Assembly (NCBI RefSeq): GCF_055900595.2
Contig: NZ_CM148325.1
Length of the DNA stretch: 64,000 nucleotides
Reading direction: 5' to 3' (one strand)
Shown here: in pieces, positions 9,269-19,687 of the stretch
Layout: every line of letters starts with the position of its first letter
Position numbering within the stretch: position 1 is the first letter of the stretch
Notes under the pieces: model-generated
Databases searched by the model: none
What the model saw: the letters and a program-made list of their open reading frames with translations, nothing else
Told to the model about the DNA's origin: nothing
Translations under genes and position numbers: made by a program

Positions 9269-11830
9269 TTACAGCAAACTCTTCAAGCGGTAAATCCACT
9301 CCAGCGCCTGACGCGGAGTCAGTGAATCCGGGTCGAGATTTTCCAGTGCTTCGACCGCTGGCGAGGTTTCTTCCGGTACTGACAGCAAAGACATTTGCGT
9401 ACCATCCACTTGCGTAGCGGCGGCGTTCGGCGAAATGCTTTCCAGTTCACGCAGTTTTTGCCGTGCGCGCTTAATCACCTCTTTTGGCACGCCCGCCAGA
9501 GCAGCAACCGCCAGGCCGTAGCTTTTGCTCGCCGCGCCATCCTGCACACTGTGCATAAAGGCAATGGTATCGCCGTGCTCCAGCGCATCAAGATGCACGT
9601 TGGCGACGCCTTCCATTTTCTCCGGCAGTTGAGTCAGTTCAAAGTAGTGGGTAGCAAACAACGTCAACGCTTTAATCTTATTCGCCAGATTTTCAGCGCA
9701 CGCCCATGCCAGCGACAGACCATCGTAAGTGGACGTTCCGCGCCCAATCTCATCCATCAACACCAGGCTGTACTCCGTGGCGTTATGCAGAATATTGGCG
9801 GTTTCGGTCATCTCCACCATAAAGGTTGAACGCCCGGATGCCAGATCGTCAGCCGCGCCCACACGGGTAAAGATACGGTCAATCGGGCCAATCTCGACTT
9901 TTTGCGCCGGTACGTAGCTGCCGATATAGGCCATCAGCGCAATCAGTGCGGTCTGGCGCATATAGGTACTTTTACCGCCCATGTTCGGACCGGTGATGAT
10001 CAACATGCGACGCTGCGGCGACAGGTTCAGCGGGTTAGCGATAAACGGCTCATTCAGTACCTGTTCAACTACCGGATGGCGACCTTCGGTAATGCGAATA
10101 CCCGGTTTATCAATGAAGGTCGGGCAGGTGTAGTTCAGGGTATAGGCCCGTTCCGCCAGGTTCACCAGTACGTCGAGTTCTGCCAGTGCGCTCGCGCTCT
10201 GTTGCAACGCCTCCAGATGCGGCAACAGCAGGTCGAACAACTCTTCATAAAGCTGTTTTTCCAGTGCCAGCGCTTTACCTTTCGAGGTGAGTACTTTGTC
10301 TTCATACTCTTTTAGCTCTGGAATAATGTAGCGTTCGGCGTTTTTCAGCGTCTGACGACGCATATAGTTGATGGGTGCCAGATGGCTTTGTCCACGGCTG
10401 ATCTGAATGTAATAACCATGCACCGCGTTAAAGCCGACTTTCAGCGTGTCCAGGCCGGTACGTTCACGCTCGCGAACTTCCAGACGCTCCAGATAATCTG
10501 TCGCGCCGTCAGCCAGCGCTCGCCACTCATCCAGCTCTTCGTTATAGCCTGATGCGATAACACCACCGTCGCGTACCAGCACCGGCGGTGTATCGATGAT
10601 TGCCCGCTCCAGCAGATCGCGCAGCTCGGCAAACTCGCCCATTTTCTCACGCAGCGCCTGTACCGGTGCACTATCGACATTTTCTAACTGTGCACGCAGC
10701 TCCGGCAGTTGCTGGAAAGCGTGACGCATACGGGCCAGATCGCGTGGGCGGGCAGTCCGTAAAGCCAGACGTGCCAGAATACGTTCCAGGTCGCCGACCT
10801 GACGCAGTACCGGCTGCAGCTCAGCGGTGAAATCCTGCAATGCGCCAATAGTTTGCTGGCGCTCAAGCAACACGCGGGTATCGCGCACTGGCATATGCAG
10901 CCAGCGTTTCAGCATTCGACTCCCCATCGGCGTTACAGTGCAGTCGAGCACGGAAGCCAGCGTGTTTTCCGCACCGCCCGCCAGGTTCTGGGTAATTTCC
11001 AGGTTACGACGCGTCGCGGCATCCATAATGATGCTGTCCTGCTCACGTTCCATAGTGATAGAACGAATATGCGGCAGAGTCGTACGTTGAGTATCTTTCG
11101 CATACTGCAACAGACAACCGGCGGCACAAAGTCCGCGCGGCGCGTTCTCGACGCCAAAACCGACCAGATCGCGAGTGCCAAATTGTAGATTCAACTGCTG
11201 GCGCGCGGTGTCGATTTCAAACTCCCACAGCGGGCGACGGCGCAAGCCGCGACGACCTTCAATCAGCGACATTTCAGCAAAATCTTCTGCATACAGCAGT
11301 TCCGCCGGATTAGTGCGTTGCAGTTCTGCCGCCATCGTTTCGCGGTCAGCCGGTTCACTCAGGCGAAAACGACCGGAACTGATATCCAGCGTCGCGTAGC
11401 CGAAACCTTTACTGTCCTGCCAGATAGCCGCCAGCAGGTTGTCCTGACGCTCCTGCAACAGCGCTTCATCGCTGATGGTGCCCGGCGTAACGATACGCAC
11501 AACTTTGCGCTCAACCGGACCTTTGCTGGTCGCCGGATCGCCAATTTGTTCGCAGATGGCAACGGACTCGCCCTGATTCACCAGTTTGGCGAGGTAGTTT
11601 TCCACCGCATGGTATGGAATCCCCGCCATCGGGATCGGCTCTCCCGCGGAAGCGCCGCGTTTGGTCAGTGAAATATCCAGCAGTTGTGACGCACGTTTTG
11701 CGTCGTCATAAAACAGTTCGTAAAAGTCACCCATCCGGTAGAACAGCAGGATCTCGGGATGCTGGGCTTTCAGCTTGAGATACTGTTGCATCATGGGCGT
11801 ATGGGCATCGAAATTTTCTATTGCACTCAT
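9269..11830 (-). CDS. mutS: DNA mismatch repair protein MutS
   Basis: 853 aa; Walker [10 protein letters not shown]; full length. Confidence 0.96.
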
Positions 11831-12076
11831 GGGGTTATGTCCGGTTCCCTGATATTAAATGGGGTGTGATGGTTTTTATTTTCGTTGTAATCACATAAGG
11901 CGCACATGATACCGGAGTTAATCATTTCAGGGGAAGAAGCGAACGGCGAGTTCTTGATGGTGATTCCGGGAAAGATGCTGTTTTGCAGCTTTTGCGTGAT
12001 GCTTATGAAGCAAGTACGCAAAATTGTATCAGTTGGCGAACCCTTCTTCTTCAGAGCCATAGTCCCCTTTCAAATT

Positions 12077-12099
12077 AAGTTGTAATATAAATACATCTT
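12077..12099. promoter_or_regulatory. candidate NsrR operator upstream of ygbA
   Basis: aagttgtaatataaatacatctt; right half AAATACATCTT matches the NsrR half-site; ygbA is a known NsrR target. Confidence 0.45.
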
Positions 12100-12116
12100 A
12101 AGAGTATGGAGGCAGC

Positions 12117-12470
12117 ATGTCTGGCAAGCGTATCTCTCGTGAAAAACTGACGATTAAAAAAATGATCGATCTTTATCAAGCGAAATGCCCGCAGGCGTCA
12201 GCGGAGCCGGAGCATTACGAAGCGCTGTTTGCCTACGCGCAAAAACGGCTGGATAAATGTGTGTTCGGCGAAGACAAACCCGCCTGTAAGCAGTGTCCGG
12301 TGCACTGTTACCAGTCTGCAAAGCGTGAAGAGATGAAACAGATTATGCGTTGGGCCGGGCCGCGCATGCTGTGGCGTCATCCGATCCTAACCGTACGCCA
12401 TCTCATTGATGACAAGCGTCCGGTGCCGGAGTTGCCAGAAAAATATCGCCCGAAAAAAAATCGTGAATAG
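12117..12470 (+). CDS. ygbA: nitrous oxide-stimulated promoter family protein YgbA
   Basis: 117 aa Cys-rich ORF between mutS and fhlA, conserved position. Confidence 0.8.
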   Translation: MSGKRISREKLTIKKMIDLYQAKCPQASAEPEHYEALFAYAQKRLDKCVFGEDKPACKQCPVHCYQSAKREEMKQIMRWAGPRMLWRHPILTVRHLIDDKRPVPELPEKYRPKKNRE

Positions 12471-12508
12471 TATACCGGACAGGCAGATCTGTCCGGCACC
12501 TCATGCAG

Positions 12509-14587
12509 TTAAACCAATGCCGATTTATCAATCCCCAGTCGTTTCATCCGTGATAGCAGTGTGGTGCGTTTTAGTCCCAGACGTTGCGCCGCGCCTTTCG
12601 GCCCGGCAACCACGCCGTTAGTCTCTTTTAATACACGCACAATTAGCTGATATTCATCTTCGCCCTCCTGAGCGACGACCGTTGCAGTCGGCGGCGTTTT
12701 AGGTTCCGGTAAAGCAATATCAGGCAATGACAGCTGCAGCACGTTGCCACGTGTCAGCAATACCGCGCGCTCAATGACGTTTTCCAGCTCGCGTACGTTA
12801 CCTGGCCACTCCATATTGCTCAACGCGCGCAACGTTTCGGCAGGAATGCTGTCGATATTGCGCCCCAGACGACGGGCAATTTTGAAGGTAAAGGCTTTCG
12901 CCAGCAGCGGAATATCTTCCGGACGCTCGCGTAGTGGCGGCAGGTGGATCGGGAATACGTTCAGGCGATAATAGAGATCGCTACGGAACTCGCGGTCGGC
13001 AACCATTTTTTTCAGATCGCGGTTAGTCGCGGCAATTAAACGCACGTCCGTCTGTATAATTTTATTACTGCCGAGACGTTCAAACTCCTGTTCCTGTAAT
13101 ACACGCAGCAACTTCGGTTGTAACTCCAGCGGCATATCACCCACTTCATCGAGGAACAGGGAGCTTTTATCCGCCAGTTCAAAACGACCGATACGCTGGG
13201 CGCTGGCTCCGGTAAACGCACCACGCTCATGACCAAACAGATCGCTTTCTAACAATCCGGCAGGCATAGCCGCGCAGTTCATTTTTACCATGCGGCGATT
13301 ATTACGCCCACTGAGATTATGGATCGCGCGGGCAATCAGTTCTTTACCGGTGCCAGTTTCACCGAGGATCAGAACTGTACTGTCACTTTGTGCCACCATT
13401 TCAACTTGTTTAAGCACGCTGTACATGGCTTCACTGCGACCAATAATCTCGCCAAATTCACTATCAACATTGTTGAGCTGCTCGGTCAGGGCGAGATTTT
13501 CATCAACCAGTCGTTCTTTCAGACGATGAATTTCCTGATAGGCAAGGGCGTTATCGACAGCGATTGCCACACGTTCGGCAATCTGGCGCAGTAAATTCAG
13601 ATTGGTCGTGGTAAACACTTTCTCTTCGCATTGCGCCAGTTTCAGCACGCCCAGCATGGTGTCGCCAGACATCAGCGGTAACAGGCACAAGGTTTGAATC
13701 TGGTTGCCCCAGGTGTCGAACAACATGCGTTCGTAGGGGGCTAAATTATCTCGCTCGTGGAGATTAATCAGCAGCATCTCTTTGCTTTTAAACACGCGTT
13801 CGGTGAGGGTTCCTGCTTCATCGACTTCGCTCTGTTCGTGAGCGGGATGCTGTTTATCAAGATAGTGAGTGGAGTAGATGTTGAGTTTGTTTTTACGGTG
13901 GCTGCGTAAGACGATGCTGATATCGTCAATGTCGAAATAGTAATGGATTTCTTTGGCGACTTCGCTGACCAGTTCGTCCATATCCAGGCGAGAAAGCACC
14001 GCGTTGGTGATGGCAACCAGGATGCGGAAGTTATCGCGTTCCCGGCATAACAACTCATAGTCGACATTATTGACGACGCGGCTCTGGATTTGTTCGGTGA
14101 CGACAGAAATGATCTGCGTAAAAGTTTGCAGGCGATTGAACTCTTTTTCACTCCACGGGCGATCGTCATAACGAATAAATTCACAGCCACCAAAAATATG
14201 CCCTTCCGCCGCCAGTGGCATCAGGCAATAGTGACCAAATTTGGGGTATAGCCCACCAGCGGCCAGCTGCGGCCAGGTTTCACAAAATTCTTCGTAACTG
14301 CAATGCAGTGTATCAGGGCGCGACAAAATGCTGCGCACCGGACCGTGTGCCAGAACAGTTTCGTCTTCATAATTTATGGGGGTGTCTTTTTCACGCGACG
14401 CGTAATAAGACGCACGTTGAGTCTGCGCTTGCCACAACACAATAGCTGCATTGTCGGCGAGCGCAGAACGCTTTACCAATTGCGAAAGAGCCTCACACAG
14501 CGAGGCCAGATCGGGCTGCTGCAATAGTGTCCGAGTGATGTCGAACAACCCTTGTTGTCCGAGATCACTCATCGGTGTATATGACAT
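12509..14587 (-). CDS. fhlA: formate hydrogenlyase transcriptional activator FhlA (sigma54-dependent)
   Basis: ORF 12509..14623 trimmed to MSYTPMSDLGQ... (692 aa); AAA+ GETGTGKE and GAFTGA motifs; C-terminal HTH. Confidence 0.93.
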   Translation of the reverse strand: MSYTPMSDLGQQGLFDITRTLLQQPDLASLCEALSQLVKRSALADNAAIVLWQAQTQRASYYASREKDTPINYEDETVLAHGPVRSILSRPDTLHCSYEEFCETWPQLAAGGLYPKFGHYCLMPLAAEGHIFGGCEFIRYDDRPWSEKEFNRLQTFTQIISVVTEQIQSRVVNNVDYELLCRERDNFRILVAITNAVLSRLDMDELVSEVAKEIHYYFDIDDISIVLRSHRKNKLNIYSTHYLDKQHPAHEQSEVDEAGTLTERVFKSKEMLLINLHERDNLAPYERMLFDTWGNQIQTLCLLPLMSGDTMLGVLKLAQCEEKVFTTTNLNLLRQIAERVAIAVDNALAYQEIHRLKERLVDENLALTEQLNNVDSEFGEIIGRSEAMYSVLKQVEMVAQSDSTVLILGETGTGKELIARAIHNLSGRNNRRMVKMNCAAMPAGLLESDLFGHERGAFTGASAQRIGRFELADKSSLFLDEVGDMPLELQPKLLRVLQEQEFERLGSNKIIQTDVRLIAATNRDLKKMVADREFRSDLYYRLNVFPIHLPPLRERPEDIPLLAKAFTFKIARRLGRNIDSIPAETLRALSNMEWPGNVRELENVIERAVLLTRGNVLQLSLPDIALPEPKTPPTATVVAQEGEDEYQLIVRVLKETNGVVAGPKGAAQRLGLKRTTLLSRMKRLGIDKSALV

Positions 14588-14660
14588 TTTGTTCTTCCAG
14601 GAAAGCACCGCAAAGCGGTGCAAAAGGTCATTGACTAAATATAGGAGATTTAGAATTTTA

Positions 14661-18489: not shown

Positions 18490-18951
18490 ATGACTATTTG
18501 GGAAATAAGCGAGAAAGCCGATTACATCGCACAGCGGCATCGTCGCCTACAGGACCAGTGGCATCTCTACTGCAATTCGCTGGTTCAGGGGATCACGTTA
18601 TCGAAAGCGCGCCTGCATCACGCCATGAGCTGTGCGCCAGACAAAGAACTCTGTTTCGTCCTTTTTGAACATTTTCGCATTTACGTCACCCTGGCGGATG
18701 GCTTTAACAGCCACACCATCGAGTATTACGTCGAAACGAAAGAGGGTGAAGAAAAACAGCGGATTGCGCAGGCACAATTGAGCATTGACGGAATGATAGA
18801 TGGCAAGGTCAACATCCGCGATCGCGAACAGGTACTGGAACACTATCTCGAAAAAATCGCTGGCGTTTACGACAGCTTATACACCGCCATTGAAAACAAT
18901 GTACCGGTGAATTTAAGCCAACTGGTAAAGGGACAAAGCCCGGCGGCATGA
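18490..18951 (+). CDS. hycA: formate hydrogenlyase regulatory protein HycA
   Basis: 153 aa, first gene of hyc operon. Confidence 0.92.
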   Translation: MTIWEISEKADYIAQRHRRLQDQWHLYCNSLVQGITLSKARLHHAMSCAPDKELCFVLFEHFRIYVTLADGFNSHTIEYYVETKEGEEKQRIAQAQLSIDGMIDGKVNIRDREQVLEHYLEKIAGVYDSLYTAIENNVPVNLSQLVKGQSPAA

Positions 18952-19001: not shown

Positions 19002-19056
19002 TGTCGATGAGTGTCGAAAATGACATTTCATCGGCATGTTTTCGTCAAAAATGACA
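19002..19056. promoter_or_regulatory. second FhlA UAS-like element, hycA-hycB intergenic
   Basis: tgtcgatgagtgtcgaaaatgaca nearly identical to the motif at 18351. Confidence 0.45.
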
Positions 19057-19075: not shown

Positions 19076-19687
19076 GTGAATCGTTTTGTAATTGCTGACT
19101 CCACGCTCTGTATCGGCTGCCACACCTGTGAGGCCGCCTGTTCAGAGACGCATCGCCAGCACGGCCTGCAATCAATGCCGCGCCTGCGAGTGATGCTAAA
19201 TGAAAAAGAATCTGCGCCGCAGCTCTGTCACCACTGTGAAGATGCACCCTGTGCGGTGGTCTGCCCGGTTAACGCTATCACCCGCGTTGATGGGGCAGTG
19301 CAGCTGAATGAAAGCCTGTGCGTAAGCTGCAAACTGTGCGGCATCGCCTGCCCGTTTGGCGCAATCGAATTTTCCGGCAGCCGTCCGCTGGATATTCCGG
19401 CAAACGCCAATACCCCGAAAGCACCACCGGCACCGCCTGCTCCGGCGCGTGTCAGCACGTTGCTTGACTGGGTGCCGGGTATTCGCGCGATCGCCGTCAA
19501 ATGTGACCTCTGTAGCTTTGATGAACAAGGTCCGGCCTGCGTGCGGATGTGCCCAACCAAAGCCCTGCATCTGGTGGATAACACCGATATCGCCCGCGTC
19601 AGCAAGCGTAAGCGTGAGCTGACCTTTAACACGGACTTTGGCGATCTCACCTTGTTTCAGCAGGCTCAAAGTGGAGAGGCTAAATGA
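19076..19687 (+). CDS. hycB: formate hydrogenlyase 4Fe-4S ferredoxin subunit HycB
   Basis: 203 aa, multiple CxxCxxCxxxCP motifs. Confidence 0.94.
   Translation: MNRFVIADSTLCIGCHTCEAACSETHRQHGLQSMPRLRVMLNEKESAPQLCHHCEDAPCAVVCPVNAITRVDGAVQLNESLCVSCKLCGIACPFGAIEFSGSRPLDIPANANTPKAPPAPPAPARVSTLLDWVPGIRAIAVKCDLCSFDEQGPACVRMCPTKALHLVDNTDIARVSKRKRELTFNTDFGDLTLFQQAQSGEAK

Follow-up and report, generated by a model that had tools for sequence, protein, structure and literature searches.

The ygbA locus

The window, as the whole 64-kb stretch of DNA analysed here is called, belongs to an E. coli chromosome, in which ygbA and then fhlA lie beyond mutS (Table 1). The product of ygbA is a protein of the PF11756 family (YgbA_NO; Pfam match, E 1.5e-40), the function of which is still given as unknown in the literature covered (PMC2884951). 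Strain Z0117EC0005 is 100% identical to the window over positions 11800–12520, and PGAP puts the ygbA start at the same place in that strain. The cysteines of YgbA are found at residues 24, 48, 57, 60 and 64, and the resulting C-x8-C-x2-C-x3-C pattern is suggestive, at the level of sequence, of a metal or Fe–S site.

Table 1. Coordinates of the features at the ygbA locus (window positions)
Feature	Position	Strand	Evidence or remarks
mutS	9269–11830	−	
Predicted −35 hexamer TAGTCC (weak)	12060–12065	+	Putative; 17 bp upstream of the −10; conserved (T/C)TG
NsrR operator, 23-bp imperfect inverted repeat (11-1-11), AAGTTGTAATA-T-AAATACATCTT	12077–12099		PWM; dyad match; conservation; CFT073 orthologue listed in PMC5320621 Table 4
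Left (promoter-distal) half-site AAGTTGTAATA, the weaker half	12077–12087	+	7.2–7.7 bits; 8/11 matches to AAGATGTATTT
Predicted −10 hexamer TAATAT, operator positions 7–12	12083–12088	+	T7, A8, A11 and T12 97–100% conserved in 80 species
Right half-site, the consensus half (minus strand AAGATGTATTT)	12089–12099	−	14.5–15.0 bits; best 11-mer match in the window
Predicted transcription start, near 12095, within the right half-site	12094–12096	+	Putative; about 7 nt past the −10, placed by the −10 position only
Shine–Dalgarno sequence of ygbA, GGAGG	12108–12112	+	Sequence; invariant in nine aligned E. coli sequences
ygbA CDS, the regulated gene, 117 aa	12117–12470	+	ORF; PF11756; PGAP
fhlA	12509–14623	−	

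Upstream of ygbA, PGAP also places a plus-strand ORF for a ‘hypothetical protein’ of 59 aa (11906–12085), the stop codon of which falls within the operator and its −10 hexamer. This ORF has no Pfam match, its K-12 version is 44 aa long and it is unannotated in UTI89; given the lack of a Pfam match and the differences in length among strains, it was rejected as a part of the system and is probably not a real gene.

A 23-bp NsrR operator ahead of ygbA

The 23 bp that end 17 nt ahead of the ygbA ATG read AAGTTGTAATATAAATACATCTT, i.e. AAGTTGTAATAT|AAATACATCTT, as described in the first-pass annotation of this DNA. In the published NsrR site of enterobacteria, which is 23 bp long, two inverted copies of AAGATGTATTT flank one variable base (PMC10783083; PMC3887101). 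The right half of the ygbA site, AAATACATCTT, reads exactly as the published half-site (PMC10783083) on the opposite strand, which bears out the earlier description of it as a perfect match to the consensus, and nowhere else in the window is AAATRCATCTT matched exactly. The left half, AAGTTGTAATA, agrees with the half-site consensus at 8/11 positions, the mismatches being at positions 4, 9 and 11. As a whole, the 23-mer is an inverted repeat of the AAGATGYATTT-N-AAATRCATCTT type and departs from the degenerate dyad AAGWTGYATTTNAAATRCAWCTT at two positions, 9 and 11; a search for AAGWTGYATTTNAAATRCAWCTT at up to three mismatches returned this site as the single match in the window, and none in 100 shuffles.

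Half-site and palindromic PWMs were constructed from the 16 ChIP-seq-positive CFT073 sites listed by Mehta et al. (2015; Table 4, PMC5320621), with ygbA left out. With these the ygbA 23-mer scores 21.5–22.7 bits, depending on the background model, which makes it the top match in the 64-kb window and places it above 14/16 of the ChIP-positive sites from which the PWM was built, as well as above the threshold applied to palindromic sites in CFT073 (PMC5320621). The chance probability of such a score is 1.2e-8 to 2.3e-8, rising to 2.5e-7 with a 65% AT background, and the score was attained in 1/200 first-order Markov simulations. The motif scan that had been named as a check on the site thus comes out in its favour.

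The evidential weight rests on this match to the motif, as dyad symmetry alone, with 8/11 pairs complementary, would not be significant in 64 kb. An inverted-repeat finder (seed 6) applied to 12040–12130 reported nothing, because the exact complementary runs are only 3–4 bases long, and matches to the half-site at up to one mismatch are not beyond chance in the window (5 observed versus 2.3 expected).

A second NsrR-type 23-mer, AAATGACATTTCATCGGCATGTT, is present at 19018–19040, between hycA (18490–18951) and hycB (19076–19687). Its sequence is that of the ChIP-seq-positive ‘hycB’ site of CFT073 (PMC5320621), and apart from it and the ygbA operator nothing in the window scores above 15 bits.

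Published regulation of ygbA by NsrR

There are published reports of NsrR controlling ygbA in K-12, in CFT073 and in Salmonella, so that the ygbA operator is already known, and the response to NO and NsrR that the first-pass annotation proposed for testing is already in the literature. The gene was named as an NsrR target in 2005 (PMC1274295). For K-12, PMC5320621 cites both regulation of ygbA by NsrR and its binding in ChIP-chip; citing papers attribute this evidence to Bodenmiller & Spiro (2006) and Partridge et al. (2009). In Salmonella, ygbA mRNA is up 31.8-fold in an nsrR mutant (PMC2884951), and in CFT073 the gene is induced by nitrate/NO and during nitrate respiration. NsrR ChIP-seq in CFT073 gave no ygbA peak, which the authors judged to be a probable false negative (PMC5320621). 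The regulator is encoded outside the window, and nsrR was found at ≥95% identity in 5425/5426 complete E. coli genomes.

Together with the motif match and the conservation described below, these reports leave us highly confident that 12077–12099 is the known ygbA NsrR operator, and that it is real and functional.

Conservation of the operator across Enterobacterales

The ygbA loci of 80 species, including members of Escherichia, Citrobacter, Salmonella, Klebsiella, Enterobacter, Kluyvera, Raoultella, Hafnia, Rahnella and others, were compared by taking, for each species, the best PWM match within 200 nt upstream of ygbA. An NsrR site was found at the equivalent position in all 80, i.e. in every one of these orthologous promoters, its end lying 12–25 nt ahead of the start codon (mode 18) with one outlier at 41. 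The mean best score was 18.2 bits, compared with 1.8 for shuffled upstream regions, and 3/80 species scored below 11 bits.

Within the site, the left half is invariant or nearly so at A1 (97%), A2 (100%), G6 (99%), T7 (100%), A8 (100%) and A11 (97%), the central base is always T12 (100%), and the right half is similarly held at A15 (90%), T16 (96%), R17 (100%), C18 (99%), A19 (95%), T22 (100%) and T23 (100%). The flanking spacer columns from −12 to −3 carry less than 0.2 bits each. Since running the same PWM on shuffled sequences yields at most 0.44 bits per column, compared with the 1.4–2.0 observed, the way in which the sites were chosen does not explain the conservation of these columns. 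The mirror pairs A1A2/T22T23, G6/C18 and A8/T16 are, on the evidence of these alignments, the signature of a dimer that uses both halves, and both halves of the operator are under constraint.

One of the contigs retrieved (L066) is titled Chryseobacterium sp. 18061, a Bacteroidota organism, and carries an enterobacterial-type ygbA (82% identity) together with an NsrR site; this assembly is probably mislabelled or contaminated.

Asymmetry of the two halves and a predicted embedded promoter

The two halves differ markedly in strength, the left scoring 7.2–7.7 bits and the right 14.5–15.0, and this gap exceeds that of 14/16 reference sites; the right half also scores above the left in 87.5% of the 80 species. 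The whole of the left-half deficit in the PWM is due to A9 and A11, with A at position 11 being given −1.8 bits compared with +1.75 for T, and T12 being neutral.

Although the NsrR PWM disfavours A11 and is neutral on T12, both bases are near-invariant in the 80 species; positions 9 and 10 are free to vary, operator positions 7–12 being found as TATTAT, TAGAAT, TAAAAT, TAATAT and TATGAT. We infer a sigma-70 −10 element here, with T7-A8-n-n-A11-T12 as its TAnnAT core, paired with a (T/C)TG element at a distance of exactly 17 bp on its upstream side. This element occupies positions −17 to −15 counted from the operator and has its G in 89% of the species, amid spacer columns that show no conservation. 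On this assignment the operator would extend from about −18 to about +5 relative to the predicted start and, with 17 nt to the ATG and TAnnAT inside it, would lie within the promoter and overlap its core elements. A strict scan for sigma-70 consensus promoters returned none at the operator site, so this promoter assignment is drawn from cross-species conservation; a text search of the literature found no experimental ygbA transcription start. TATAAA at operator positions 10–15 was considered as an alternative −10 and rejected, as positions 13–14 vary across species and TAnnAT at 7–12 is invariant.

Because A11 and T12 complete a conserved −10 hexamer, the divergence of the left half points to a conserved second function rather than to decay, and the embedded hexamer would account for the asymmetry of the operator. 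The first-pass view of the left half as diverged is thus accurate in so far as it matches at 8/11 positions, deviates at A9 and A11 and scores only 7.2–7.7 bits; any reading of this divergence as decay does not hold, since the half is constrained across the 80 species. Nor is the operator as a whole ‘degenerate’, as it had been called, given that the 23-mer outscores 14/16 ChIP-verified sites: it is asymmetric.

Comparison with characterised NsrR sites

The closest known relatives are the ygbA sites of K-12 and CFT073 (Mehta et al., 2015, Table 4), which occupy the orthologous position, have the same 23-bp frame and share an identical left-half core, TGTAATAT. The K-12 operator, AAGATGTAATATAAATACATCTT, differs from the window at position 4 (window T, K-12 A), and that of CFT073, AAGTTGTAATATAAATGCACCTT, which is listed in PMC5320621 on the opposite strand as AAGGTGCATTTATATTACAACTT, differs from it at position 17 (window A, CFT073 G) and position 20 (window T, CFT073 C); the three score almost equally in the PWM (21.3–21.5 bits).

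The canonical 11-1-11 palindromes of ytfE, hcp and hmp share their motif and their repressor with ygbA. The right half of the CFT073 ytfE site, AAATGCATCTT, differs from that of the window only at position 17, the degenerate R, and the ytfE site is nearly perfectly symmetric, whereas the left half of the ygbA site has A9 and A11, which form the predicted −10. In the single-half-site targets attributed to Partridge et al. (2009) and in LEE5 of O157:H7, one strong 11-bp motif likewise dominates the score; unlike in these, the second half of the ygbA site is recognisable (8/11) and phylogenetically constrained, as in a full site.

Structural information comes from Streptomyces coelicolor. In the complex of its NsrR with the hmpA1 operator, the minor groove at either end of the operator is contacted by wings bearing Arg60 and Lys45 is close to G-6, and no loss of binding was detected in vitro when the central 7 bp were changed to AT-rich or GC-rich sequence (PMC9338935); half-sites are not bound by this protein (PMC4432287). 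The contacts of [4Fe-4S]-NsrR with the 23-bp hmpA1 site, at the ends and at about ±6, match the invariant A1A2/T22T23 and G6/C18 of ygbA, and A9 and A11 both fall in the central 7 bp that are dispensable for the S. coelicolor protein. The DNA-contacting residues of E. coli NsrR differ from those of S. coelicolor, which makes the comparison a guide only, and where S. coelicolor NsrR accepts any sequence in the central 7 bp, E. coli sites show a preference for TTT/AAA. With E. coli sites so strongly preferring T at 9–11, the cost of A9 and A11 to binding may be higher than the S. coelicolor data would lead one to expect.

A model for NsrR action at ygbA and its alternatives

Most likely, a dimer of holo-NsrR, the NO-sensing Fe–S repressor of the Rrf2 family, binds the 11-1-11 dyad, occludes the −10 and the start site and so shuts off the ygbA promoter. 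Recognition would involve positions in both halves, namely the outer A1A2/T22T23 and the G6-T7-A8/T16-R17-C18 blocks. With the −10 in the left half and the predicted start in the right, bound NsrR would cover about −18 to +5 and exclude RNA polymerase; NO would nitrosylate or damage the cluster, upon which NsrR would leave the DNA and ygbA would be transcribed, in keeping with the general NsrR mechanism, in which NO damage to the Fe–S cluster leads to release of the repressor (PMC4432287). The weakness of the left half would follow from bases shared by two functions, with sigma-70 needing A11 and T12 at a cost to the NsrR PWM score. The exact transcription start, the occlusion mechanism and the contribution of the left half to binding are what we infer here; the motif match with its statistics, its conservation and the promoter geometry come from the sequence analysis, and NsrR/NO-dependent regulation and occupancy of the promoter by NsrR in K-12 from published work.

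The first-pass annotation had suggested a ‘half-site-dominated’ operator; on this view NsrR would read essentially the right half AAATACATCTT only, its other monomer resting non-specifically on the left, as has been proposed for single-motif NsrR targets. A right half scoring 14.5–15 bits compared with 7.2–7.7 for the left, an asymmetry greater than in 14/16 reference sites and the ranking of the right half above the left in most of the species would all be in line with this, and binding of NsrR to half-sites is an already published concept, single 11-bp motifs having been reported as functional for the E. coli protein (PMC5320621; PMC3887101; PMC4432287). The left half nevertheless adds 7.2–7.7 bits of its own and is better than 10/32 ChIP-positive halves, and five of its bases (A1, A2, G6, T7 and A8) are 97–100% conserved, and of these A1, A2 and G6 are not known to serve a sigma-70 promoter in any way; its sole deviations from the PWM, A9 and A11, are central and accounted for by the −10 hexamer, and the entire 23-mer exceeds the palindromic-site threshold for CFT073. 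The site also falls outside the definition of a lone half-site target (one 11-bp motif without a conserved partner at 1-bp spacing), because its second half is both recognisable (8/11) and constrained. A repressor reading the right half only is, in our estimation, unlikely.

Far less probable still is that there is simply an AT-rich ygbA core promoter with a coincidental resemblance to an NsrR site. A likely −10 does lie inside the site, an AT-rich background lifts the chance probability to 2.5e-7 and the CFT073 ChIP-seq data lack a peak at ygbA; yet even with that background about one match per genome would be expected, and this one is found before an NsrR-regulated gene, while the right half, downstream of the −10 in a stretch where promoters have no specific sequence requirement, is near-invariant and mirrors the left. 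We give equally little credence to the dyad being the target of another dimeric regulator, whether an Rrf2 protein such as IscR, or FNR or NarL, even though Rrf2 proteins have a common fold and AT-rich dyads and ygbA responds to nitrate and nitrite, which act also via NarL/NarP and FNR. The match is specifically to the NsrR matrix, and the dyad presumably bears no likeness to IscR motifs or to that of FNR (TTGAT-N4-ATCAA). A phenotype of ygbA in an nsrR mutant has moreover been published (PMC2884951).

Returning to binding of the full dyad by a dimer, much of this is confirmation, ygbA having counted among the textbook genes of this regulon from 2005–2006 onwards, with its site in published lists of NsrR targets. 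The additions are modest: a predicted embedded −10, conserved order-wide, that would account for the weak left half, and a catalogue of near-isofunctional E. coli operator alleles, set out below. For motif-based annotation, the case illustrates that asymmetric sites can be full sites and that a weak half need not mean decay of the operator; the findings may also be of use in the design of NO-responsive reporters from the ygbA promoter. A more ambitious proposal, which we consider doubtful, is that the site is a conserved composite in which the bases shared by the −10 and the left half lock promoter strength and repressor affinity into a trade-off, and in which the five alleles set lineage-specific NO thresholds.

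Variation within E. coli

Nine aligned sequences revealed operator polymorphisms at positions 4 (A/T), 17 (A/G) and 20 (T/C), and exact-word searches of 5426 E. coli genomes were used to count the alleles. The K-12 allele, AAGATGTAATATAAATACATCTT, occurs in 2111 genomes, followed by those of Ecol_316 (...ATACACCTT; 1300 genomes), UTI89/CFT073 (...ATGCACCTT; 1120 genomes) and EF5 (...ATGCATCTT; 682 genomes); the window allele, AAGTTGTAATATAAATACATCTT, with T4, A17 and T20, is rare (29 genomes). All five score 20.5–22.4 bits in the PWM, and from these near-equal scores the variation, which falls at degenerate positions of the motif, is predicted to be near-neutral for binding.

Strain AHM8C160RI carries a rarer operator variant, AAGATGTAATATAAATACCTCTT, which scores 19.3 bits. 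In the same strain (locus L009, 1–264) the sequence further upstream than the predicted −35 has been replaced by an IS200/605-type TnpB gene, the end of which lies ~100 nt ahead of ygbA.

The surroundings of the operator in the window are themselves divergent. The mutS region (10000–11000) is only 90–95% identical to 4983/5417 E. coli genomes, and the ygbA region (11800–12520) shows 90–95% identity to 4653 E. coli genomes, while fhlA (13200–14200) shows 95–99% identity to 5397. The divergent mutS–ygbA segment is common at ≥99% identity to only 8–9 genomes, and has probably been imported, with a boundary near the ygbA/fhlA junction.
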